Below, piece after piece: positions 9,035-45,042 of a stretch of DNA of 46,731 nt. The DNA lies in IMG/VR virus record IMGVR_UViG_2529292726_000019, one strand, 5' to 3'. Source of the DNA: a virus. Lineage: Duplodnaviria > Heunggongvirae > Uroviricota > Caudoviricetes. Every line of letters begins with the position of its first letter. Position 1 is the stretch's first letter. Under the pieces are notes generated by a model, which was not told the DNA's origin, did no database searches, and was given only the letters and a program-made list of their open reading frames with translations. A program made the translations under genes and the position numbers.

Positions 9035-10165
9035 TCACACCGCCACTGGAACCTTGATCCACGGTAGAGGGGCATAGCCAAGAATAAGAATCTCGTCCCA
9101 TTTGAAATCATCCAGCTCAGACCATTCATTAGGGAATATAACGACCGGATCTGAATGCTCTGGAGCCTGTCGTTGCATTAGCTCACACACACCTTCCATG
9201 TGGTTGTTGTACAAATGCACGTCAAAGCCAAAATGCACAAATGCACCGGCCATGTGACCCGTAATCTTCGCGAGAAAATGAGTGAGAATGCCATAGCCAG
9301 CAATATTGAATGGCATACCAACAAAAGTGTCTACGCTACGCTGTACGAGGCAGGAGTTGAGGATGCGTTTGGGGATTCCAAGTTCATCCAGTTCAGTTTC
9401 AGTAACACTGCCGTCCATCTCCAGATCGTATAGCATCTTGGTGTAGATAGACTCATAACCGAGGCGACTGTGTTGAAGACCAATGTCAGTTGCCATCGTT
9501 AAACGGGTTTCAAAATCCAGTTCACGACTCCACAAAGAGAAGACAAAGTGGCAAGGGGGCAGTTTCATATCCTCAAGCTCGCCTACGTTCCATGCGTTAA
9601 GCATGATGCGACGATCGGTAGGGTTCGTGCGCAGTGTATCGACAATACGCTGTAGCTGATCGATTTCACGGGACAGCACTACGCGATCTTCACTGATACC
9701 CAGGTATCCCTCGACTTTGTACCCGCGTTCACGGAAAGTAGCGATCTTGCTCAGATATTCACTATGGCTCACGATGCGGGTATCTTCCCATCGACGCCAC
9801 TGCTTACCGTAAACCGGCCCCAAATCGCCATTCTCATCGGCCCATGCATCCCAAATCTTAACGCCGTTATCCTTGAGAAATTGGATGTTGCCCGTGCCTT
9901 TCAGATACCACTCAAGTTCGACAAGCAGTGGCTTAAGATTTACCGCCTTTCCAGAAATAAGCGGCACAGTCCCACCAGTAAGCATGTAGTAAGAGGGAAC
10001 GTAGCAGGTGCTTAAAGTACCAGTGCCTGTGCGATCATCAGCCTGCACGCCGCTTTTAAGCACCGTCTCAATAACTTTTGCATACGATGCGTTTGTTCCC
10101 TGACCGTTCGTATGCTCACGATTCAAAAGGAGTGACACAAAAACCTCACAAAGATAAGTAACCAC
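9035..10165 (-). CDS. thyA: thymidylate synthase
   Basis: DDRTGTGTLS, LKPLLVELEWYLKG, GDLGPVYGKQWRRW and catalytic-Cys region MKLPPCHFVFSLW. Confidence 0.85.
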   Translation of the reverse strand: MVTYLCEVFVSLLLNREHTNGQGTNASYAKVIETVLKSGVQADDRTGTGTLSTCYVPSYYMLTGGTVPLISGKAVNLKPLLVELEWYLKGTGNIQFLKDNGVKIWDAWADENGDLGPVYGKQWRRWEDTRIVSHSEYLSKIATFRERGYKVEGYLGISEDRVVLSREIDQLQRIVDTLRTNPTDRRIMLNAWNVGELEDMKLPPCHFVFSLWSRELDFETRLTMATDIGLQHSRLGYESIYTKMLYDLEMDGSVTETELDELGIPKRILNSCLVQRSVDTFVGMPFNIAGYGILTHFLAKITGHMAGAFVHFGFDVHLYNNHMEGVCELMQRQAPEHSDPVVIFPNEWSELDDFKWDEILILGYAPLPWIKVPVAV

Positions 10166-12505: not shown

Positions 12506-14821
12506 TCAGATTTTGCAGGCTCCGTCGCACTCATCTTCTGGCTCGACGGCTACAGCTTGCGCCAATGGATTCTGCGGTTCGTCGTCATCACGCTTTCCTG
12601 CACCATCTCTGGTGTTGTGGTAGTAAAGCGTTTTAACTCCCATCTTGTAGGCGAGAAGCAAATCTGACAGTAGCGTCATCATTGGGACTTTATCGCCTTC
12701 AAAGCGAGAAGGGTCATAGTTGGTATTGGCTGAAATAGCCTGGTCAAAGAACTTCTGGATGATCGCCACCTTTGTCAGATAGCCGCGGTTGTCCGGCATA
12801 TCCCACAGGTATTCATACTGTTCCTTCAGTTTTTCAAACTCAGGCACGACCATCTTAACGATGCCGTCCTTAGAAGATTTCACCGACACCGGGCCACGAG
12901 GCGGTTCGATGCCGTTGGTGGAATTAGTGATCTGGCTGGAAGTCTCGCATGGCATTTGTGCCGTCAGTGTGGAGTTGCGAAGGCCGTATTTTGCAATACG
13001 TTCACGCAGTTCTTCCCACGGCATCTTTAACTCAAAGTTGGTTTCGCCACTTTCGTCTAATGAAGAACGGTAATGGTCGATCGGCAACTGACCAATTGCG
13101 TACTTGGTCTGCTCAAACCAGTCACACTCACCTTTTGCTTCAGCAAGTCGGCAGCTGGCATCAAGAAGGTAATACTGGATAGCTTCGAATGTTTCATGCA
13201 CCAGTTTATTGCCAGCGGTATCAGAATAACGAACGCCATTCTTTGCCAGGTAATAAGCAAAGTTGGTTACACCAATTCCCAAGCTACGACGAGCTTTGGC
13301 AGGCACTTCGGCTGCCTCCATCGGATAGTCTTGATAATCCAGTAACGAATCCAGTGCAGCAACGGCATAGAACGCCACCTCTTTAAGAGACTCCAGTGAA
13401 CGGATGGCTCCGAGGTTAAAAGCGGATAAAGTGCATAGCGCGATCTCACCGTTCGGGTCGTCGGTAAATGCCAGTGGACGGGTGGGTAGGGTGATCTCCA
13501 TACACAGGTTTGACTGGCGGACAGGTGCAAGAGCAGGAATGAAAGCGCCATGCTCATTAATATGATCGACGTTCGCAATATAAATTCGGCCCGTGGACGC
13601 TCGTTCCTGCATCAGAGATGAGAACAGCTCAATGGCAGGTACTGACTTCTTGCGAATTGAATCATCGGCTTCGTATTTATGGTACAGCTTTTCAAACAGC
13701 TCCTGGTCTGTGAAGAAGGCTTCGTACATATCAGGCACATCATGCGGGCTGAACAGAGTGATGTTCTCGCTTCTGACGAGTCGACGGTACATTAGACGGT
13801 TACTCATGACGCCGTAATCAAGATGGCGAACGCGGTTTTCATCAATACCACGGTTATTTTTCACCACCAGCAGACTTTCAACTTCAAGATGCCAGATCGG
13901 GTAAAACGCTGTTGCTGCGCCACCACGAACACCACCTTGCGAACAAGATTTAACAGCCGTCTGGAAATGCTTCAGGAATGGAATAACTCCGGTATGGGTG
14001 GCTTCACCATTGCGGATCTCGCTGCCCAGCGCACGGATACGGCCAAAACCAATACCAATTCCAGCACGACGTGAAACGTAGTCGATAATTGCGGCTGAAG
14101 CTGCACTAATCCCTTTCAGACTATCGCCAGACTCAATCAGCACACAACTGGAGAACTGACGGGTTGGAGTACGGACGCCGGCCATGATTGGTGTGGGCAG
14201 AGACAGTTTGAACGTACTTGTAACGTCATAGAAACCTTTGACCATCTCCATACGTGTTTTGCCAGCGCAGTCGTCTTCCCAATTCTGGAACAGACACATG
14301 CCTACCAGCATATAGATATGTTGCGGCCCCTCATGAATCTCACCAGTAACACGGTTTTGAACGAGGTATTTGCTTTGCAACTGCACCGTAGCTGCATAGC
14401 CAAAAAGATCGTCACGTTTCGGCTTAATGTAATTGCCGAGTTCTTCGATCTCTTCAAACGAATAATGAGTCAGCAAATCCTTGTCATAAACGCCCTTGTT
14501 AACGTTCTTGACAATGTGTTGGTAGAAGTTCGGATAGTCGTAACGACCGAAGGCATCTTTGCGGATTTTAAAAATGTTCAGGCGGGCAGCCACCTGTGAG
14601 TAATTTGGTGCTTCTGGTGAGATCAAATCAGCGGCAGATTTAACCAAAGCCTCATGCAACTGGCTGGTGGTCATCCCATCAAAAATGCTGGCCGCAGCTC
14701 CCATTGCTACAGCGGATGCGCTTACACCACGAATGCCTTCTACGCCATACATTACGACGCGGTTGTATTTTTCTTCGGATAACGGCTCTGTTTGGCCGTT
14801 ACGTTTTACGATGCTTATCAT
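12506..14821 (-). CDS. nrdA: ribonucleotide reductase class Ia alpha subunit
   Basis: 771 aa with ATP-cone N-terminus and catalytic-site region (NLCMEI, C-terminal redox Cys pair CDGACKI). Confidence 0.9.
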   Translation of the reverse strand: MISIVKRNGQTEPLSEEKYNRVVMYGVEGIRGVSASAVAMGAAASIFDGMTTSQLHEALVKSAADLISPEAPNYSQVAARLNIFKIRKDAFGRYDYPNFYQHIVKNVNKGVYDKDLLTHYSFEEIEELGNYIKPKRDDLFGYAATVQLQSKYLVQNRVTGEIHEGPQHIYMLVGMCLFQNWEDDCAGKTRMEMVKGFYDVTSTFKLSLPTPIMAGVRTPTRQFSSCVLIESGDSLKGISAASAAIIDYVSRRAGIGIGFGRIRALGSEIRNGEATHTGVIPFLKHFQTAVKSCSQGGVRGGAATAFYPIWHLEVESLLVVKNNRGIDENRVRHLDYGVMSNRLMYRRLVRSENITLFSPHDVPDMYEAFFTDQELFEKLYHKYEADDSIRKKSVPAIELFSSLMQERASTGRIYIANVDHINEHGAFIPALAPVRQSNLCMEITLPTRPLAFTDDPNGEIALCTLSAFNLGAIRSLESLKEVAFYAVAALDSLLDYQDYPMEAAEVPAKARRSLGIGVTNFAYYLAKNGVRYSDTAGNKLVHETFEAIQYYLLDASCRLAEAKGECDWFEQTKYAIGQLPIDHYRSSLDESGETNFELKMPWEELRERIAKYGLRNSTLTAQMPCETSSQITNSTNGIEPPRGPVSVKSSKDGIVKMVVPEFEKLKEQYEYLWDMPDNRGYLTKVAIIQKFFDQAISANTNYDPSRFEGDKVPMMTLLSDLLLAYKMGVKTLYYHNTRDGAGKRDDDEPQNPLAQAVAVEPEDECDGACKI

Positions 14822-14838
14822 GTATCACCAAATAAAGA

Positions 14839-14860
14839 GGGCCACTAAATATAGTGGCCC
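14839..14860 (-). terminator. perfect hairpin gggccact-aaatat-agtggccc, 18 nt upstream of the nrdA start codon
   Basis: 8-bp GC-rich stem followed by a T-rich run on the minus strand. Could equally be a 5'-UTR regulatory structure for nrdA. Confidence 0.4.
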
Positions 14861-14894
14861 ATGTTAATAGATAAGCACTTACCTATCAATGAAA

Positions 14895-15464
14895 TCAAAT
14901 GAGAGACTTAAGAACATCGCGCACCTGGCGGAACTGATCTGTTTGCATACCGGTATGGATGGCAGCCACCGCATCAGCCAAATGTTCGTTTTTGTTCACG
15001 AGAACATCCTGTCCAGATTGCTTACGACGCAGCCACGGTGCTTTAGGGTGTTTTTTCGTAGCCCACTGGATAATCTCTTCTTTCGATGTAGTAAGTTTAT
15101 TGCCGACAAAATGCTTGATTTCGTTTGGAGTAACCTGGATCAATGGCTTATCCACACACGCAAGTACACCGATACAAATACCGTAAGACGTCTGCGAACG
15201 AGAGTTTTGGCTCCCAACCGGTAGCTCACAAAAAACCATATTTGCCTTATCAATGATTGGCTTCGCAACACGCCATATTTCACTGGCTCGGCGCAGATCG
15301 TCACTGTTCACACGAACGGTCTTTTTGTTACTCCCCGCTTTAGTCTCAACAAGAGTAAGGCCGTGAATCTCAAGTTCGTCCGTCTCAAGGTCTAAAGTGC
15401 CCACAGCAAGCCCAAAGTTGCTCATTGAGGGATCAACACCAACTACGCTGATTTTTTTACTCAT
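14895..15464 (-). CDS. putative RuvC-like Holliday junction resolvase
   Basis: N-terminal VGVDPSMSNFGLAV, ELPVG and C-terminal NEHLADAVAAIH resemble RuvC catalytic motifs. Confidence 0.5.
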   Translation of the reverse strand: MSKKISVVGVDPSMSNFGLAVGTLDLETDELEIHGLTLVETKAGSNKKTVRVNSDDLRRASEIWRVAKPIIDKANMVFCELPVGSQNSRSQTSYGICIGVLACVDKPLIQVTPNEIKHFVGNKLTTSKEEIIQWATKKHPKAPWLRRKQSGQDVLVNKNEHLADAVAAIHTGMQTDQFRQVRDVLKSLI

Positions 15465-15473
15465 ATAGTCTCC

Positions 15474-16217
15474 TTACCATGTTCCCCATATAGGGTTTTC
15501 CAATAATCTCGCCTCCAACGAATTGGCTACTATTGCCGTTTGCAACGTTGGTTGGGGATAGTTTGCAAAGTCTGAATACTCATTTTCCTGCGTGACACGT
15601 TTATCTGCGGCATGTTTAACACCACTTGCTATGAAATGACGCATGATGCCCAACAGCCTCCGACTGTCTGCACTATCGTTTGCTAAAACATGAGGGAGCT
15701 GAAGTTCGATTTCTACCATTTCTCCATACTTACCAACAAACTGTAGTTTGTCCGCACTGTACTTTTTATCCCTCCTTTGGATAAGGAAACCAGTAAAAGC
15801 ATCACCTGGCGATGCCAAACTATCCACCCGCTTATTGGCAAGTCGAATAAGGTTCGTGAAAGCCATACAGTGATGCGCACCCATTCCCCCAAAGAACCCT
15901 TCGCTATTAATGTTAAGATCTTCAGTTTCATGGGATGCAATAAACCCAGGCCCGACGTTGGGAAGATATCCCCCCTCAACAAAAGGATTAATCAGGATCG
16001 GCGCAATACATCCAGGTGGTAGTGATTTCAAACTTTGCATCAATGGCGTCTCGGATATTAGACCAAGCAACGCGGCGAATTGTACTCCGTCAATATTGTT
16101 GCTGCCCCACAGAATACGTGGAGCCGCACCATTGGAAGTATGCCCATTGATCAGTTTTATCGACTGCATCACTGCAAATACCTGCAAAAACTGCGAGCGG
16201 CTTAATTTAAACGACAT
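15474..16217 (-). CDS. hypothetical protein (247 aa)
   Basis: ORF between the RuvC-like gene and sbcC; no motif recognised. Confidence 0.5.
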   Translation of the reverse strand: MSFKLSRSQFLQVFAVMQSIKLINGHTSNGAAPRILWGSNNIDGVQFAALLGLISETPLMQSLKSLPPGCIAPILINPFVEGGYLPNVGPGFIASHETEDLNINSEGFFGGMGAHHCMAFTNLIRLANKRVDSLASPGDAFTGFLIQRRDKKYSADKLQFVGKYGEMVEIELQLPHVLANDSADSRRLLGIMRHFIASGVKHAADKRVTQENEYSDFANYPQPTLQTAIVANSLEARLLENPIWGTW

Positions 16218-18123
16218 AGCTGCGCCCCTCTTTAACTTCCAGCGTAATAGTTTCCCGGAACCATGACTTCATCTCTTTATGGGAGATAATCAGCACAGTA
16301 CCTCGCTCGCGAGCTTTGGACTCCAGAATACCCATGAGGCGTTCAAGACCGGCTGTATCGAGTGCATCGTCAATTTCGTCGCCGATAAACAAATCGATGT
16401 TTTTACTCGCCCGGTTACTAACCAGATCCTGCAATGCCAAAGAACACGCAATGCGAACCTTCCGCTTCTCACCACCAGAGAGGGTCTGGAACGACTTACT
16501 TGAACCTTTCTTCTGCACACTAATGTTGAATTTGTCGCGATACTCACCTTTTTTAGTGACATCCATCGTCGACCACTCAGCAGTAATATTCCCGTCAGAC
16601 AACGTATTGAGATACTCGGCAGTGCGTGTATTCAGGAAAGGCGTAACAGACGTCAAAATATGAGAACGCACCCCGGCAGGAGAGTAGACCTGACGAGCTT
16701 TTTCCAATAGCAACGTTTGTTCCTGAATAGCCTTCAACTCATCTTTTAAGGACTTGAAGGTAGACTTACTGGATACCAGGTTATCTTCGTGTCTGGCGAT
16801 AAGAGCAATAAACGGATTAATCTCTTTTGATATACGATCGACCTCAGTACGAGCACGAGTCACAAGAGACTCAATAGCAACAACCTCCTTCTCACGATGA
16901 CGCAAAGATGAGAGTTGTTTCGTAAGCTCTTCAATCCGGGCAATGATAGCCGTTACATCAGGTGTCGTTTTAACAAGGGCAGACTCAATGCTTAACGCTT
17001 TCTCAAGATTCGTTTTGTGTTTAGCCATTGCCTCTGCAAGTGTCTTCGCCTGACCAATTTCCTGACGTGCTTGTTCAATGAAATTCTCCTTCACCGTTGA
17101 TAGATCTTCTTCGCAGTAGGCTTTGCCACAAGTAGGGCATGGTGATCCCACTTTAGTACCAACCTCTTCTGCTTTGGTCTTAAAATTACGCGCGCGGCTC
17201 ATTGCATCAGCCTGACTATTTTCTGTAGCTTTGATGCTTGCCCGAATATCAGTTATCGCACCACGAACTTTGAGCAACTTGGCGTCATGTTCTTCTTTTG
17301 AGGCTAACTTTTTGCGCTCACTTTCGATTGCCTTCTCGGTATCACGGATCTGTTCGGGAAGAGTGCGGATCTCAAGTTCAACTTCCGTTAACTCAACTTC
17401 GGCACTGGCCAGCCCAGCCAGGGCATCGTCATAACGTTTAGAACGCTCTTGCTCCCATGATTCAGAGGAGGCTTTCGCTGACTCAATTTCTGACTGTGTT
17501 GCCTCAATGGTCGAGATTGTCGACTCCAATTTGGTTTTAACCACATCCATACGTGCGGCAGCTGCATTAGCTCGCTCACGAGCAATAGCGTAGGCGCGTG
17601 TCAGTCTGTCAACGCCAGCGGCTTCTTCTACGATGGTTTTGAGGTTTTTGTCGGACATTCCAGGTAAATCTGGCATAGCTTCTTGGCTCGCATAGATGGA
17701 AGCCATGAAAACCTCTTTAGATGCACCGATCAGACGCTCGACGAACTCTTGCGTCAGCGCATCTTTGCCTTTCGTCATATCGCCGTCTTCACCACGAACG
17801 ATAAGCCGATTTTTGAACTCTTTGTGTTTACGGTGACGAATGATCGCATATCTCTTGCCTTCATCCTCGATGGTTACTGCAACACGACAGTTCTTTTCAT
17901 GGTCGGTAGACAACACATCGTCACCCTTCACACCATGAGCTGTTTCGCCATAAAGACACCACATCAGGCTATTCATTAGCGTTGACTTTCCAGAGCCATT
18001 ACTTGATGCGGAACTATCATCACTATTAACACCCTGAATGAGCACTAAACCACGCTGATCTAACTCGACCTCCGCGCTGGCGATAGCCATAAAATTCTCA
18101 ACCTGGAGCTTTAAAAACTTCAT
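16207..18123 (-). CDS. sbcC: SbcC/Rad50-like ATPase
   Basis: Walker A GSGKST, long coiled-coil centre with CPTCG zinc hook, signature LSGGEKRK and Walker B IGDEIDD. Confidence 0.8.
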   Translation of the reverse strand: MKFLKLQVENFMAIASAEVELDQRGLVLIQGVNSDDSSASSNGSGKSTLMNSLMWCLYGETAHGVKGDDVLSTDHEKNCRVAVTIEDEGKRYAIIRHRKHKEFKNRLIVRGEDGDMTKGKDALTQEFVERLIGASKEVFMASIYASQEAMPDLPGMSDKNLKTIVEEAAGVDRLTRAYAIARERANAAAARMDVVKTKLESTISTIEATQSEIESAKASSESWEQERSKRYDDALAGLASAEVELTEVELEIRTLPEQIRDTEKAIESERKKLASKEEHDAKLLKVRGAITDIRASIKATENSQADAMSRARNFKTKAEEVGTKVGSPCPTCGKAYCEEDLSTVKENFIEQARQEIGQAKTLAEAMAKHKTNLEKALSIESALVKTTPDVTAIIARIEELTKQLSSLRHREKEVVAIESLVTRARTEVDRISKEINPFIALIARHEDNLVSSKSTFKSLKDELKAIQEQTLLLEKARQVYSPAGVRSHILTSVTPFLNTRTAEYLNTLSDGNITAEWSTMDVTKKGEYRDKFNISVQKKGSSKSFQTLSGGEKRKVRIACSLALQDLVSNRASKNIDLFIGDEIDDALDTAGLERLMGILESKARERGTVLIISHKEMKSWFRETITLEVKEGRSYVV

Positions 18124-18352
18124 ATAACACCTTTGATACCGTGTGTTAGCTTTTGACCTTCTTTCAATCTGAACTCCGTATGCGCCGGGAAGGATCTGCG
18201 CCTCAATACGCCTTTTCTGGTTAACCTTCCAAGATAAAACGCTACGGGATTTCCTTGTGGCGGGTAGGGCTTGTGAAACATCACCGTCTGGCCTCGTTCA
18301 AGTCTTTTCATCGTGATGGCAAAGTCTCGAAAGCTCCCATAACGACTTTGCC

Positions 18353-19438
18353 TCACACAGCCTCCGAACTCTCCGCTTCGGTGAGGATTTCCTGACACAA
18401 AATATCCAACTTGCTCAGATCAAATCCGCCGTCAGTATCGTGGACAATCTTGCAATAAGCAGATACCGACTCTCCCAGGCTATCGATTTTGCTGGTTTCC
18501 GTTGTGCTTGCTGTCCCTTCCATCATTGATGACTTACGGATGAAGTTGCACACGACACCTTTTGCACCCATTGTTTTGAGGATGTTCTGGTACTTAATGC
18601 CTTCTTCATCGTTCTCAATTACGGCGCGGAAACGCACGTAGTTGCCGCGAATTTGGTCATCGGCAACATAATCTTCCAGGTTAATGAATTTAGGCGCACT
18701 GGTTTCGTAGTGACTGAAACTGCCGTCCGGGTTTACGATCATGTAACCAGCCAGAGATCCAACATCTCCCCAATTTTGATGGGTCAGCGCACCGACACTG
18801 ATAACTCCAGGAATGACCTCTTTGTGGTTGTGGTAATGCCCACTAAGCACGAGACGAAAGCCGATATCCTTTAACTCCTGCGCATCGATACCGACGTCAG
18901 GCATTGTTGGAATGGCTTTGTTAATGGATGTATGGATAACAACGTCATGATTATCACCTTCTACGCTCTTACGTAATGCTTTCAGATCGCTGATAAGCTC
19001 TGCATGATTGTTACGCCAGCTAATCAGGTGGACAGTCACATCACCAATTTTTATTGAGTGTGGGCGTTTGCCACATACGATTACCACGCCGATAGAACTC
19101 AGCGATGCTGCTGCGTTGGCGCTATATACTGAATCGTTGGTTTCAAGATCGTGATTACCGGCCAGCATTACTACTGTCAGATCAAGCTCGTTGATAATCC
19201 ACTTGTACGTTTCAGTTACGTAATGCAAAACAGAAGGGGACACAGTTCCTCGGACGTGAAATGTATCACCGGCAACCAACATGTACTTACAACCGGCCTT
19301 CTTCATGGCGATGGCTGCTTCTTTCGTTGCTTCCAACTGTATTTCAAGTCTGGAGTTAAGCCCCTCTGCGTTCGTCGTGGAGAACGCATCCCATTTGTGG
19401 TAGTGGCAGTCAGAAATGACGCCGTATGGCAAAGTCAT
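18353..19438 (-). CDS. sbcD: SbcD/Mre11-like nuclease
   Basis: Calcineurin-like phosphoesterase motifs GDTFH, GNHD, GHYH; conserved start region upstream. Confidence 0.8.
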   Translation of the reverse strand: MTLPYGVISDCHYHKWDAFSTTNAEGLNSRLEIQLEATKEAAIAMKKAGCKYMLVAGDTFHVRGTVSPSVLHYVTETYKWIINELDLTVVMLAGNHDLETNDSVYSANAAASLSSIGVVIVCGKRPHSIKIGDVTVHLISWRNNHAELISDLKALRKSVEGDNHDVVIHTSINKAIPTMPDVGIDAQELKDIGFRLVLSGHYHNHKEVIPGVISVGALTHQNWGDVGSLAGYMIVNPDGSFSHYETSAPKFINLEDYVADDQIRGNYVRFRAVIENDEEGIKYQNILKTMGAKGVVCNFIRKSSMMEGTASTTETSKIDSLGESVSAYCKIVHDTDGGFDLSKLDILCQEILTEAESSEAV

Positions 19439-19692
19439 GTGTTTTTCCTTTGTGGTTATTTTGATACAAATTTTAAGAGCAATGAGAAGGTAAACAACTA
19501 TGCATAACGGTATGTTAGGAATGAAACGAGCGTCTTAATATACAAAATTTATAAGTAAGTATATACCTATTTGTTGTGACGCAACTTTGCTTGTCTGTAT
19601 AACTAAAAATAAGACAGGATCACTGTAGAACGCTATGAGAGCTATTTTGAGGAGGCGTAGATTCTATCTACGCCAATATACGATCTGGAGGG

Positions 19693-20337
19693 TTACAGCG
19701 CGTCAGTGGGCTTTTTACGCGCTGCGTTTATGCTTATGACGCCAGCTTTTGGACGTGGGTCAACAAGGTTAAGCTCTTCTTCGCTGTGGTATTCGAGGTC
19801 GAACTCACGTTTTACATGTCTGATGTAGATTGCGGTGAGCAGGCTATTTTTGGTCAGAAAGTGTCCGTAGGATTTGCGGATCACTTCTTCTACCTTCTCG
19901 ATTTTCTCACCACCCATACAGAGATGATTAAACCGGCTGTGTTTCCGCAACATTTCGTCTACTGGGCCTGAGTAAACCTTGTCTACTTTCCCAAAACGGA
20001 TGATTTTCCCTGTGTCTGCGGATACGAGGCAAATCAGCTTGTCTGGTGATAAACGATCTCGCCACGTCACACCTGAACGGAGTGTGTTGAAGTAGGGAGC
20101 ATCCAATCCGATGATCGGTTTACGAAATGCGAGTAATGGAACGTACCTGATGCAACTGTTTAAATGAAAATTCACACCAGCCTTATCAAGTTTAATTCTG
20201 GTTTCGTAGATCGGGCACTTCGCCGCTATACCGCAGATGTCACAAAGCAACTTCTGCTTATTCAGGTTGGAATTTGATTCGATAGTGTAGGAGCCGTCTT
20301 CAAGACGACGAACCCAGCGCGTGCGTTTTAGATCCAT
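19693..20337 (-). CDS. hypothetical protein (214 aa)
   Basis: ORF with a CDICG...C cysteine cluster; no family recognised. Confidence 0.5.
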   Translation of the reverse strand: MDLKRTRWVRRLEDGSYTIESNSNLNKQKLLCDICGIAAKCPIYETRIKLDKAGVNFHLNSCIRYVPLLAFRKPIIGLDAPYFNTLRSGVTWRDRLSPDKLICLVSADTGKIIRFGKVDKVYSGPVDEMLRKHSRFNHLCMGGEKIEKVEEVIRKSYGHFLTKNSLLTAIYIRHVKREFDLEYHSEEELNLVDPRPKAGVISINAARKKPTDAL

Positions 20338-25070: not shown

Positions 25071-26144
25071 TTACTCTTCTACTGACTCGGTTGGGTTGTC
25101 TTTTGCTCTTCGGTCGTCGATTGCCTGCAAAGCCGCAATGATTTCAGCCAGTGGCTTCTCCCGATACATCTCGACGATCTGCGATTTGGTGTATTTCTTG
25201 TCACCAATTTCAACTCGCCCGCTGGCGTTCTTTGGCAGGTATCCTTCTTCCAGCATGTACTCGACGAGCGATTCGATAACGTCGAGGCCACGAGTAGGAT
25301 CGAAGTAGAATTTCCAGGTGCATTTGCCATACGGTGGTGCAACTTTGTTTTTGATGCATTCTGCGCCTACGTCCTGGCCGATCTTCTCTTTACCATCCTT
25401 CATCACCGATGCACCAAGACGGATACGTACAGAAGCGTAGAACTTCGGTGAATCTCCACCTGGCGACGTAGTAGGGTCGCCAAACATTACACCGATTTTT
25501 GTGCGAACCTGATTCAAGAAGATGATGCAGGCGTTGTATTTGCGTGCCCACAAAGCCAGAGTAGGGAAGTTCGCACTTGTCGCACGAGCCAGTGCCGTAT
25601 TGTCGTTCATGTTCAGCTGATCTTTGTCTTTGGCAGTGCCTTCAGCCATCTTTTCGAACTTCTCGGCTTTGGAGTTCGGAACCATAGACGCAAGTGAGTC
25701 AGCCACGATACAGATAGGTGCTGATTCAGGAATAAGCTCTTCATCACGTACCAATTTAAGAATTGTGCCGATCAACTCTACAGAGTCTTCGAAGGTATCA
25801 GGCTGCTTGTATACCCACTGACCGTCATCCTCATCTGCGTTCAGGCCATTGGCTACAGCCAGGCCAACGTCAAAACTGTTTTCATGATCGAGGAATACCG
25901 CCAGACCATCTTGTTTTTGAGCGGAGATCATCGCTGCTGTTGCAAGGAACGTTTTCCCTGCACTTGGAGGACCGAATACTTCGACGATACGACCACATGG
26001 GAAGCCGCCATCGTAACGACCAGAAATAGCTTTGTTTAACGGTGGAAAGCCTGTATCAATCCAATGAGTTACTTTCTGAATTTCGTCGTTGCTACCGATT
26101 TTCTTTTTCAGAGCAAGTGCCAGTGCGGATTTTCCTTTTGCCAT
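25071..26144 (-). CDS. recA: RecA-like recombinase
   Basis: GGFPCGRIVEVFGPPSAGKTFLA Walker A region and RecA-like core. Confidence 0.85.
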   Translation of the reverse strand: MAKGKSALALALKKKIGSNDEIQKVTHWIDTGFPPLNKAISGRYDGGFPCGRIVEVFGPPSAGKTFLATAAMISAQKQDGLAVFLDHENSFDVGLAVANGLNADEDDGQWVYKQPDTFEDSVELIGTILKLVRDEELIPESAPICIVADSLASMVPNSKAEKFEKMAEGTAKDKDQLNMNDNTALARATSANFPTLALWARKYNACIIFLNQVRTKIGVMFGDPTTSPGGDSPKFYASVRIRLGASVMKDGKEKIGQDVGAECIKNKVAPPYGKCTWKFYFDPTRGLDVIESLVEYMLEEGYLPKNASGRVEIGDKKYTKSQIVEMYREKPLAEIIAALQAIDDRRAKDNPTESVEE

Positions 26145-26146
26145 GA

Positions 26147-26419
26147 TCAGGCTCCTTTTGTTTCGTTGATTCGTTTTAAAGCGGCGGATTCGTCGAATAC
26201 AATCGCATCGTGGTTAAGGAGTCTGGATACACGAGCGAGGATTTTTACGACCTGCTCGCTGACTAATCCAAACTCGCGATCTGTCGCTTTCATTCCGGCA
26301 GCGCCTAGAATTGACGGCAGTGCGATGACAGCGTACTCACCGTGATAAAAGACAATCTCTTTTGCCAGTTGGGCAGGGGTGGTTGTAGCGCCATTGATAA
26401 TCGATTTAAGCATTAGCAA
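26147..26419 (-). CDS. hypothetical protein (90 aa)
   Basis: ORF between the exonuclease and recA-like genes. Confidence 0.4.
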   Translation of the reverse strand: MLMLKSIINGATTTPAQLAKEIVFYHGEYAVIALPSILGAAGMKATDREFGLVSEQVVKILARVSRLLNHDAIVFDESAALKRINETKGA

Positions 26420-27357
26420 TACCTTTCGAATGGAAGAACAAACACTTCAAGGTCTTCAAGGAACGAACGGAAATTCAGCTCGTAGCACAGTTGCTCGAAT
26501 GCTTTCACGTCACGATTGCCTTTGATTGTTTCGATTTCGGTAGGCGGAAACTTCGTCTCAATCAGGTTCATTAGCGTGATGTTTCTCTTGAACGCTTCGA
26601 GCATTCGACAGCCTGTTTTCTCGTTGAAGGCATTCTTCGCTAGTTTGTTGAAGGCGGTCTTATGGCGTCCTTTGTCAACCACGATTGAGCCGTCGTTGAT
26701 GCCGCGTACCATCGTTGCGACACTTCCCCATTCATGCAGCAGCTCTTTCGCACCGCCAGCACCAATGCCACCAACACCGCTAATGTTGTCCGATTTATCG
26801 CCTTGTAATGCTTTTGCTTCCAAAAATGCGCGAGGAGTAGCGAATCCTGTCAGCTCCGCAAATTGCTCAAAATTAACCTGCTTGTTTTTGGCGTCTTCGC
26901 GCAGGCTTACCCAGCTTACGTTTTCGCGAACTAACTGAAGCCAGTCGCTATCGCCTGTTAACAGATAGATGTGTTCAACGATTGGCTGCGGTGCAATGCT
27001 GGCTACCAGCAGCCCGGCCAGATCATCCGCTTCTGCATCTTTTGCAATGAGTTGGGTAACTCCAAGCGCGGTCATCATTTTGAGGATGTATGGCTTCTGG
27101 ATAGCAAAGCCTTCCTTCATCTTTTTCATATCAGGATCGTCGTCGCGATTTGCTTTGTAGTCCGGGTAAAAGTCGCGACGCTTGTCACTAAATCCATCCC
27201 AAAGAATCATAGGTCGGGCATGGAGGATGGAGGCATAACGACGGACGTTCTTAACAAAGCCGAAAGCAGCCTGTACTTCCATTTCGCCGTTGTGCAATTT
27301 GTCAGATTGCTGGTGGTAATAACCCAGGCTATTGCCATCTACGAAGAGATAATTCAC
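26413..27357 (-). CDS. 5'-3' exonuclease / flap endonuclease
   Basis: NYLFVDGNSLG, KANRDD, TGDSDWLQLV, GDKSDNISGVGGIG motifs. Start moved to GTG at 27357 (RBS GGAAGGA) because the first 17 codons of the track ORF coincide with a terminator hairpin. Confidence 0.8.
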   Translation of the reverse strand: MNYLFVDGNSLGYYHQQSDKLHNGEMEVQAAFGFVKNVRRYASILHARPMILWDGFSDKRRDFYPDYKANRDDDPDMKKMKEGFAIQKPYILKMMTALGVTQLIAKDAEADDLAGLLVASIAPQPIVEHIYLLTGDSDWLQLVRENVSWVSLREDAKNKQVNFEQFAELTGFATPRAFLEAKALQGDKSDNISGVGGIGAGGAKELLHEWGSVATMVRGINDGSIVVDKGRHKTAFNKLAKNAFNEKTGCRMLEAFKRNITLMNLIETKFPPTEIETIKGNRDVKAFEQLCYELNFRSFLEDLEVFVLPFERYC

Positions 27358-27379
27358 CGGTACATTCCTTCCAAAAAGT

Positions 27380-27399
27380 AAGGCGTCCGTAGACGCCTT
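27380..27399 (-). terminator. rho-independent terminator aaggcgtcc-gta-gacgcctt
   Basis: Hairpin plus TTTTT on the minus strand after the SSB gene. Confidence 0.5.
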
Positions 27400-27417
27400 A
27401 CTGGTCACGTAATGGGA

Positions 27418-44259: not shown

Positions 44260-45042
44260 TTACCAACTTCCCCAGCTAATCATCTTGCGCTGATCGCTTT
44301 CTAAGCGATAGGGGACAAGAAGCTCTGTGACATGATTGGGGGCGTATGATTTAGCCTCTTGCTCTATCATCGGTAATTCGTTAGCAATCCTGACCATCTT
44401 CCCAGCAAACTCCGCCATTACGCCATCACATGCCTTCCCAGCATCAATAACGATATGCACCAGATCCAACTGGCTTTTGCACATGTCGCAAAGAGACGCA
44501 TACTCACTCTCTCTGATTACATTTACGGCATCATTAGCCCCTTTATTAAGCAAGACTTCCAACAGGTTTGTCGGGGTAACGAAATCGGCTTTAAGTGACA
44601 ATGTTCTCTCACCTTTTATCGACCGTAAGTACTCTTCGTAGTTTTGCTTGTCTTCCAGCAAAAATAAGCTATGCATAGTTAGAAGTGATTCTTGAATAGC
44701 CTCTTCAATAATACTGTCATTTGACGCACAAAAAACGGTATTTGTGTAGATCACTTTGCCATCCATCCATGCCCCAACCTGCACTTTAAGACTGATCGGG
44801 TTTTCTTTGCTAATAAAAACAACTAATGCAGAACGCCGTGCACAAGAAGGTTCACCCCATACGTGTAACTTAACCTTCAGATAAGGTAGCCCCGGTAGCG
44901 GGATCTCGACCAAACGAGTGGCGATATGATCCATTGCTGTTTTTACGGCTTTTTCAATGATGTCTAGCCGATTGCTCTCGCTGATTTCTAAACCAGTTTT
45001 ATCAATGATGTCGCAGGCTAATTTCTGAATTTCGTCTTTCAT
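44260..45042 (-). CDS. hypothetical protein (260 aa)
   Basis: ORF downstream of the primase; function unassigned. Confidence 0.5.
   Translation of the reverse strand: MKDEIQKLACDIIDKTGLEISESNRLDIIEKAVKTAMDHIATRLVEIPLPGLPYLKVKLHVWGEPSCARRSALVVFISKENPISLKVQVGAWMDGKVIYTNTVFCASNDSIIEEAIQESLLTMHSLFLLEDKQNYEEYLRSIKGERTLSLKADFVTPTNLLEVLLNKGANDAVNVIRESEYASLCDMCKSQLDLVHIVIDAGKACDGVMAEFAGKMVRIANELPMIEQEAKSYAPNHVTELLVPYRLESDQRKMISWGSW

Follow-up and report, generated by a model that had tools for sequence, protein, structure and literature searches.

What does a protein without detectable relatives do when its gene lies between, and is coupled to, the genes for an SbcC/Rad50-like ATPase and a RuvC-like Holliday junction resolvase? 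This question is raised by a 46,731-nt stretch of DNA (referred to below as the window) from a virus of the class Caudoviricetes (IMG/VR record IMGVR_UViG_2529292726_000019), in which a 247-aa open reading frame (ORF), here designated X, occupies positions 15474..16217 of the minus strand. An earlier note on this DNA, made from the sequence alone, had pointed out that X and a RuvC-like gene sit between nrdA (12506..14821, minus strand) and sbcC and had suggested a recombination or repair function for X. All of these ORFs were found where the note had placed them, and the operon association is borne out by the analysis described here; the function itself remains a matter of guilt by association. 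The best reading of the data is that X is a lineage-specific accessory protein and not an enzyme of a known class, and it may serve as an adaptor or regulator of a T4-like recombination machinery.

The element that carries X is readily recognized. Over positions 14000-19500, the window shares 99.4-99.7% identity with the Escherichia phages CMS-2020a and Cyrano and about 77% with Salmonella phage SSU5. In Escherichia coli LF82, Cyrano is present as the SSU5-like phage-plasmid pLF82, which is kept at about 5.5 copies per cell and is induced by genotoxic stress (PMC9928086). X is identical (100%) to the Cyrano protein CYRAN_67, which is annotated as a hypothetical protein and is preceded by CYRAN_65 (SbcD-like) and CYRAN_66 (SbcC-like) and followed by CYRAN_68 (RuvC resolvase) and CYRAN_69 (NrdA).

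Translational coupling of X to sbcC and ruvC

The ATG start codon of X lies within the final codons of sbcC (...AGCTATGTCGTTTAA), in agreement with the 11-nt overlap described in the earlier note. The overlap (16207..16217, minus strand; ATGTCGTTTAA) lies within the sbcC end ...AGC TAT GTC GTT TAA, with the sequence GAGGGG just before it, and the same layout, AGCTATGTCnnnTRA, is seen in 10 of the 10 loci compared, including loci in which X is only 23-28% identical. On the other side, X is separated from ruvC by a gap of 9 nt (TAA-GGAG-ACTAT-ATG) that contains a Shine-Dalgarno sequence. A terminator-like hairpin followed by a T-run lies after ruvC and before nrdA (14839..14860, minus strand; GGGCCACTATATTTAGTGGCCC then TCTTTATTTG); it has 9 pairs, 6 of them G-C, and is the only strong terminator-like hairpin in the block (14860..14839 in the direction of the genes). 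Because of this hairpin and of a weak promoter-like site in front of nrdA (14889..14861), nrdA is probably a transcription unit of its own, and the operon consists of sbcD, a 63-aa ORF, sbcC, X, and ruvC. In the LF82 lysogen, these genes are expressed near background, with normalized values of 7.5, 11.8, 16.4, and 9.4 for CYRAN_65 to CYRAN_68 (supplement of PMC9928086).

X was found in 12 phage records and in 760 plasmids from PLSDB, and its homologues come only from SSU5-like elements. The plasmid hosts are Klebsiella (310 plasmids), Escherichia (205), Enterobacter (89), Yersinia (63), Salmonella (49), and Citrobacter (25). With few exceptions, these plasmids are typed as nonmobilizable and, wherever the records are annotated, X is listed as a “hypothetical protein.” The order sbcC-X-ruvC, together with the same overlap, is retained in every context examined, including the metagenomic members with 23-28% identity. 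It is also retained in an E. coli contig of 24.7 kb (GCA_021583815.1; locus L011) that represents a mosaic or degraded SSU5-like element. There, nrdAB and the ASCH-like gene located upstream of sbcD are gone, and genes for a TonB-dependent receptor, a type I restriction subunit, and a PTS component are present, but the sbcD-sbcC-X-ruvC block is intact. Coexpression of X with SbcCD and RuvC, as claimed in the earlier note, is thus well supported by the coupling geometry, which was seen in every homologue found, and is further backed by the survival of the block after the loss of nrdAB. The SbcD/SbcC-like nuclease, X, and the RuvC-like resolvase are made from one message, and the translation of X is coupled to that of both partners.

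Among the plasmids, full-length X (46% identity) is present in 63 Yersinia records. Two of the PLSDB matches (H146 and H147) are Yersinia pestis plasmids of 95-101 kb, which we take to be of the pMT1/pFra type. Such plasmids are not, to our knowledge, known to produce phage, so that X appears to be intact here in a plasmid-only setting.

X defines a family without detectable relatives

X matches PHROG 2117, a family with no assigned function that includes SSU5_076, from end to end (E = 2e-127, with residues 1-247 aligned to positions 1-248 of the 248-position profile). That it is a real coding gene is evident from this match, from the conservation of frame and length (234-249 aa) across the family, and from a ratio of nonsynonymous to synonymous substitution rates (dN/dS) below 1 in every comparison. 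The family carries no functional annotation in PHROGs, GenBank, or RefSeq; we found no statement on the function of X in the literature, and the Cyrano paper gives it as hypothetical (PMC9928086).

Searches with the single sequence and with family profiles gave no match in Pfam, NCBIfam, PADLOC, or the PDB sequences, and none of the 14 family members tested had a Pfam match at E values up to 5. Weak PDB matches that might have made X a relative of 14-3-3 or TRAP1 proteins had E values above 0.1 and were discarded as noise. In a word-indexed search of 5.8 billion clustered proteins, the sequence and the profile of X retrieved 48 and 54 clusters, respectively, and an exhaustive hidden Markov model search of 1.84 billion representatives retrieved 25 matches, all of them from the same SSU5-type family.

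Two AlphaFold2 runs with different alignments gave concordant models of X (pTM of 0.76 in both; pLDDT of 73-78 for the five models of the second run). The predicted layout consists of a globular alpha/beta domain (residues 1-203), a stretch with pLDDT below 50 (residues 204-232), and a C-terminal helix followed by the tail. The predicted secondary structure runs from two helices (residues 7-27 and 44-55) through three strands, a helix (residues 114-132), and three more strands to a long helix that begins at residue 183. Foldseek comparisons of both models with the PDB, and comparisons with BFVD, yielded nothing with an E value below 0.03 or a TM score above 0.2, the best E value against the PDB being 0.04; the GAF, roadblock/longin, and PH entries scattered among the matches were not significant. 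Single-strand annealing proteins (Rad52, Red-beta, ERF, and Sak) were also considered and rejected: no such family was matched in Pfam, no Rad52, RecT, or Red-beta structure in the PDB matched the models in Foldseek, and the ERF entries in BFVD reached only E values of 0.1-0.37 with TM scores of 0.17 or less. With a pI of 5.2-6.7, X is ruled out both as a DNA mimic and as a basic DNA binder. Structure prediction and the nearest equivalents of HHpred, the approaches advocated in the earlier note, have therefore provided models but no family assignment. Homology to an unrelated metabolic family, the outcome regarded in the note as speaking against its proposal, was found in neither the sequence nor the structure searches.

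A C-terminal W-x-x-W tail shared with a second orphan protein

The conservation of X is concentrated in three places, namely, residues 1-20, the loop APILINPF.EGGYLP..GPGF (residues 71-92), and the C-terminal 17 residues, whereas variation is greatest in residues 131-190 and 201-230. The C-terminal segment (residues 231-247, ...SLEARLLENPIWGTW-COOH; 15477..15527, minus strand) ends in W-G-T-W, which is encoded at positions 15477..15488. It is a low-entropy segment adjoining the most variable, low-pLDDT linker. In family members that are only 23-26% identical, E240, W244, and W247 are still invariant and P242 is nearly so, so that the family ends in ...E.(.)P.W[G/A][T/S/A]W-COOH. A DNA pattern based on this tail matched 78 viral contigs, and the match was an X homologue in 78/78. 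The residues of the tail are kept while the wobble positions vary, and the Shine-Dalgarno sequence of ruvC follows the stop codon, outside the tail codons.

A scan for this ending that took in all ORFs (stop to stop) of 50 aa or more, both of the window and of the remainder of the Cyrano genome, revealed exactly one other real Cyrano protein that ends in W[GA][ST]W, against a chance expectation of about 2.7e-4 for such tails among the other 125 Cyrano proteins. This protein, here designated Y260, is a 260-aa orphan (CYRAN_34/SSU5_042; PHROG 4248, function unknown) that is encoded between the primase and ligase genes (44260..45042, minus strand) and ends in ...KMISWGSW-COOH. Comparison of X with Y260 revealed no similarity beyond W[GA][ST]W-COOH. 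The orthologues of Y260 in SSU5 and in Klebsiella phage pJN2-26 are 41% and 34% identical to it, respectively, compared with 84-94% for the flanking primase and ligase, and its divergence from SSU5, where the primase and ligase are 91-94% identical, makes it even faster evolving than X. Its tail is nevertheless kept as KM..W[G/A][T/S]W in 103 viral contigs. Because no gene lies within 55 nt downstream and the wobble positions vary, this conservation acts on the protein and not on a ribosome-binding site.

X thus ends in a short motif that is located at the extreme C terminus, behind a disordered linker, and is kept while the body of the protein diverges. The same motif is found on unrelated clients of one system, but there are only two such clients, X and Y260. 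By way of speculation, the position of Y260 beside the helicase and the primase would suit an adaptor of the helicase-loader type.

Possible roles of X and alternative explanations

The X family has already been catalogued as PHROG 2117, and the gene itself is not new. What is new is the evidence that, in a phage Mre11/Rad50-RuvC operon, X is a third or fourth gene that is both obligate and translationally coupled. New, too, are the absence of detectable structural relatives of X, its atypically high rate of evolution, and the terminal W-x-x-W peptide that it has in common with a second orphan.

The surrounding gene set suggests a context for these features. The element encodes a T4-like recombination set that comprises a UvsX/RecA-like recombinase (25071..26144, minus strand), a FEN-type exonuclease (26413..27408), a gp32-like single-stranded DNA-binding protein (SSB; 27418..28446), a UvsY-like mediator (28564..29019), and a UvsW helicase, whose gene is found elsewhere in the Cyrano genome, as well as a DnaE polymerase (29121..32627), a primase, and a ligase. 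Our tentative proposal, whose chances we would put somewhat short of even, is that X is a lineage-specific adaptor or regulator of this recombination machinery of the phage-plasmid. The tails of X and Y260 would act as putative docking peptides that tether both proteins to one common hub; a common hub is suggested by the occurrence of this peptide on Y260 as well, a product of the helicase-primase-ligase operon. The gp32-like SSB, the UvsX/RecA-like protein, and DnaE are candidates for this hub, and further possibilities would be the DnaB-like helicase of the element or a host protein. The globular domain of X would engage SbcCD, RuvC, or their DNA substrates, and X would couple end processing and junction resolution to recombination-dependent replication in lytic growth, as T4 gp59 and UvsY do on gp32-coated DNA.

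A stricter version, which we consider quite improbable, would make X the third subunit of the phage Mre11-Rad50 complex, an Nbs1-like adaptor of a new fold that operates via a docking system of SSU5-type phage-plasmids that is defined by the tail, has so far gone unrecognized, and is also used by Y260. X would then recruit the nuclease, and possibly the RuvC-like resolvase, to the replisome or to an SSB hub. Even more speculatively, the tail tryptophans, flanked as they are by small residues, might mimic the GW/WG “Ago-hook” peptides, with which some plant viruses block Argonaute.

The evolutionary behavior of X has to be set against the adaptor or regulator proposal. X is 47% identical to its SSU5 counterpart, compared with 82-88% for SbcD, SbcC, RuvC, NrdA, and NrdB; the respective values are 44% and 81-90% for the Klebsiella phage pJN2-26 and 28% (over part of the length) and 65-77% for the metagenomic locus L002. 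In every comparison, X exceeds its neighbors 3- to 4-fold in dN, and in the closest informative pairs (loci L008 and L009) its dN/dS is 0.27-0.31, as opposed to 0.04-0.05 for SbcC and RuvC. Judging from these ratios, X is under purifying selection, but of a kind much weaker or patchier than that acting on its partners, and such a rate is unusual for an obligate subunit. A G6 tract inside X (15970..15975, minus strand; codons E81-G82-G83) is the site of frameshifted database alleles; it is exactly at this tract that P0038 (26 members) and P0046 (6 members), two truncated alleles of 167 aa, change frame. These alleles may be homopolymer sequencing errors, or they may be real slippage or pseudogene alleles.

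The distribution of the family weighs in the same direction, as it is confined to SSU5-like elements. The gene order helicase, primase, ligase, cobT/S, dnaE, exonuclease, recA, sbcD, sbcC, ..., ruvC, nrdA is also found in Pseudomonas phage nickie (loci L021 and L022; MG018927), which is syntenic with SSU5/Cyrano over the whole replication/recombination region, and the order in Rhizobium phage RHph_N1_10 is partly similar. In both of these phages the slot between sbcC and ruvC is filled by unrelated genes, in nickie also by a homing endonuclease gene, and no profile similarity to either X or Y260 was found for the genes in this slot. Given the restricted family and the unrelated genes in the outgroup slot, SbcCD and RuvC do not need X in general. 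Together with the fast dN, these two observations weaken the view of X as a core subunit.

The tail, too, has points that count against docking. Its G/A state is the same in X and Y260 in 25 of the 30 contigs that carry both; the five discordant contigs indicate that this concordance reflects mostly shared ancestry or clade structure and not compensatory covariation. In nickie, at least 10 proteins, including the products of both genes between sbcC and ruvC, end in [FIMA]G[GST]W[AS]. As a protein docking motif, however, these tails were rejected: most of them consist of a GGAGG/GGGAG Shine-Dalgarno sequence, a spacer, and an overlapping ATGA start/stop, that is, a coupling cassette for the next gene. 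The repeated junction cassette of nickie is TTYGGRRGNTGGGCATGA, with a recurrent Trp codon in the spacer. Two nickie proteins, CNR34_00057 and CNR34_00108, have such tails without an overlapping downstream gene.

Much of this would fit a different role, one that we regard as only slightly less likely than the first, in which X is a counterdefense factor or modulator of host nucleases that is encoded in a recombination operon. Its targets would be host RecBCD, host SbcCD, or a defense system that senses DNA ends or recombination intermediates, with the fast body tracking the host targets and the conserved tail anchoring X to a conserved partner. Within the module, dN and dN/dS are highest for X, the only other carrier of the tail, Y260, is likewise fast, and quick divergence with few fixed motifs is typical of host-interaction proteins; the restriction of the family to one lineage and the variability of its slot in outgroup phages fit as well. 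Phages that replicate by recombination must neutralize RecBCD, as is done by lambda Gam, T4 gp2, and T7 gp5.9, and the Cyrano annotation names no function of this kind; in lambda, gam adjoins exo and bet. TelN of phage N15 is one phage protein that reportedly inhibits bacterial Mre11-Rad50 (PMC12624138). However, X displays no sequence or fold similarity to Gam, Abc2, gp5.9, or any PADLOC/antidefense family and is too little acidic for a DNA mimic. Its dN/dS of 0.09-0.31 speaks against gene-wide positive selection, and the N-terminal helix and the APILINPF..GGYLP loop stay nearly invariant across many enterobacterial host genera. A lead to Mu Gam-like end protection came from Pectobacterium phage CB4, in which the gene upstream of the homologous RuvC-like gene is labeled “Mu Gam-like,” but this label has no Pfam support and the lead was abandoned.

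It is also conceivable, if improbable, that X restrains the SbcCD-like nuclease or the RuvC-like resolvase of the element itself and that the W-x-x-W tail is a degron, so that X would be made in a fixed ratio with SbcC and then cleared by host proteolysis, for example, through Lon, ClpXP, or FtsH. The conserved overlap does tie the synthesis of X to that of SbcC, and in the AlphaFold2 architecture an exposed aromatic C-terminal tail on a flexible linker fits protease recognition. Also consistent with such restraint are the retention of intact X on Y. pestis plasmids (63 PLSDB records) and the low, near-background level of the operon in the LF82 lysogen (PMC9928086). A degron would leave unexplained, however, why the tail is borne by only two proteins, one from the recombination operon and one from the replication operon. 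Furthermore, we know of no characterized degron class that the W-x-x-W tail resembles. We give least credence to the remaining explanation, that X has no role in recombination and is an unrelated accessory or selfish passenger in a permissive slot, the shared tail being due, for example, to common ancestry of a terminal peptide. The same slot in related phages does take unrelated genes and a homing endonuclease, X evolves fast, and truncated alleles are found in the databases. A passenger would hardly be expected, though, to keep the sbcC-X-ruvC order and the 11-nt overlap without exception down to 23% identity, to be clearly under purifying selection in its N-terminal helix, in one loop, and in the tail, or to persist with sbcCD and ruvC in the degraded element L011 while nrdAB was lost.

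Neighboring genes and the replication module

The names sbcC and sbcD and the label RuvC-like that the earlier note had given to the neighbors of X proved to be sound. The first gene of the block (18353..19438, minus strand) encodes a 361-aa SbcD/Mre11-like nuclease that matches the Pfam domain Metallophos above the cutoff (8.3e-10) and PHROG 100 (2.4e-92). The calcineurin-like phosphoesterase motifs (I-V) are visible in its translation, with DCHYH, GDTFH, GNHD, and GHYH. The SbcC/Rad50-like ATPase (638 aa; 16207..18123, minus strand) matches AAA_23 (6.7e-17), SMC_N (6.4e-14), and PHROG 77 (4.5e-165), with an SbcC_Walker_B match below the cutoff and partial NCBIfam Rad50/SbcC matches. It has an ATPase head and a zinc hook, with a Walker A motif (NGSGKST), a CPTC hook, a signature motif (LSGGEKR), and a Walker B motif (LFIGDEIDD). 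Because its scores stay below the cutoffs of the NCBIfam equivalogs for SbcC and Rad50, the protein is a relative of the phage gp46 type and not an orthologue of E. coli SbcC.

Between these two genes, the 229-nt gap contains a small ORF (63 aa from an internal ATG; 18120..18311, minus strand) that matches PHROG 37951 (E = 7e-38) and has no annotation in Cyrano. Four nucleotides are shared between its stop and the start of sbcC. The ORF has 75% identity with SSU5_074 and a dN/dS of 0.06-0.13. It is missing in the divergent locus L002, and a different ORF of 72 aa takes its place in loci L008 and L009.

The last gene of the block (14895..15464, minus strand) encodes a 189-aa RuvC-like Holliday junction resolvase that matches PHROG 159 (“RuvC-like,” E = 3e-57). 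It has no Pfam match and no match among the PDB sequences, and against the NCBIfam RuvC equivalog it scores 16.7 bits, compared with a cutoff of 163. Candidate catalytic residues, aligned by eye to the RuvC tetrad, are D11 (VGVDPS), E80 (FCELP), and H161/D164 (NEHLADA). The nearest relatives outside the group are the N4 gp46-like proteins of Schitoviridae, with about 40% identity. By sequence comparison, this gene would be classed as N4 gp46-like and not as a RuvC orthologue.

Several other genes of the window differ from their annotation or stand in unexpected company. The UvsX/RecA-like protein is 357 aa long in the window (25071..26144, minus strand) and 780 aa as annotated in Cyrano (locus L001, 23366..25705). 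The window protein aligns with PHROG 9666 in two stretches, the better of which places residues 65-357 on profile positions 487-779. This suggests that the Cyrano gene carries an insertion, for example, an intein or a homing element, that the window gene lacks. At 32808..34043 and 34139..36247 (minus strand), the replication module also includes a CobT-like protein with a VWA domain (Pfam CobT and CobT_C) beside a 411-aa ORF. The 411-aa ORF occupies the position of the annotated cobS of phage nickie, and this arrangement is kept from SSU5-type elements through nickie. The gene at 9035..10138 (minus strand) is labeled “ThyX thymidylate synthase” in Cyrano, while its orthologues in loci L002, L008, and L009 match the Pfam domain Thymidylat_synt (PF00303, ThyA type), so that, from these profile matches, the ThyX label looks wrong. 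Upstream of sbcD, a 214-aa protein (19693..20337, minus strand) that Cyrano labels “ASCH RNA-binding domain” has no Pfam match and hits only PHROGs with no assigned function (2105). It is 66-86% identical across the group, and its gene reaches a value of 31.5 in the LF82 lysogen, compared with 7-16 for the sbcCD genes (supplement table of PMC9928086).

Comparison with known systems and implications

The recombination-dependent replication of phage T4 is one of the closest parallels to the module discussed here. In T4, gp46/47 resect DNA ends, and UvsY and gp59 then dock on DNA covered with gp32, where they load the recombinase and the helicase (PMC3016280). The element encodes counterparts, homologous or analogous, of almost every part of this machinery, namely, an SbcCD-like pair of the gp46/47 family (PHROG 77 and PHROG 100), UvsX/RecA-like and UvsY-like proteins, a gp32-like SSB, UvsW, and a junction resolvase. 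The logic proposed for X and Y260, small adaptors docking on one hub, is that of the T4 proteins that dock on gp32 (PMC3016280). The two systems differ in that T4 has no X homologue and no translationally coupled third protein with its gp46/47 pair, and in that the resolvase of the element is RuvC-like instead of endonuclease VII and its polymerase is of the DnaE type. X is similar to neither gp59 nor UvsY in sequence or in predicted fold.

The likeness to Nbs1/Xrs2 of the eukaryotic MRN/MRX complexes is one of logic only: a folded N-terminal region is joined by a long disordered linker to a short conserved peptide at the C terminus, and X is encoded directly with Mre11/Rad50 homologues. In Nbs1, this C-terminal peptide binds Mre11. 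Pfam and Foldseek searches revealed neither FHA or BRCT domains in X nor any similarity in sequence or fold to Nbs1/Xrs2, and we are not aware of a third subunit in any bacterial or phage SbcCD. As to the tail, docking peptides such as the E. coli SSB DDDIPF, the sliding-clamp motifs, and the aromatic C-terminal tails of T7 gp2.5 and gp4, which bind the T7 DNA polymerase, are similarly conserved at the extreme C terminus behind a disordered linker and are common to otherwise unrelated proteins of one replication/recombination system. W-[G/A]-[T/S]-W fits none of these motifs, however, and has only two carriers per genome. With lambda Gam, Mu Gam, and other nuclease inhibitors, X shares its small size, the lack of an enzymatic function, and coding together with phage recombination nucleases. 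It differs from lambda Gam, the Mu Gam/Ku-like proteins, and T7 gp5.9 in having no homology or fold similarity to them and a pI near neutral; a functional analogue with a new fold is conceivable. Taken by analogy, the best reading is that X would work most like an adaptor of the gp59, UvsY, or Nbs1 kind, but every test of membership in those families that was run placed it outside them.

Phage-plasmids of the SSU5/pHCM2 type are common in clinical Enterobacteriaceae and are known carriers of resistance genes, and the functions of their replication and recombination genes have largely been inferred from T4. If X is indeed an adaptor or regulator of the Mre11-Rad50/RuvC module, it would show by what means such nucleases are directed or held back on a genome that lives both as a low-copy-number plasmid and as a lytic phage, and both a fold with no detectable relatives and a new docking peptide would join those already known. 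As a third subunit, it would be the first accessory subunit described for an SbcCD-type complex of bacteria or phages. If X is instead a counterdefense factor, it would mark a host pathway that limits SSU5-type elements. Under either reading, the shared tail offers a direct experimental handle.

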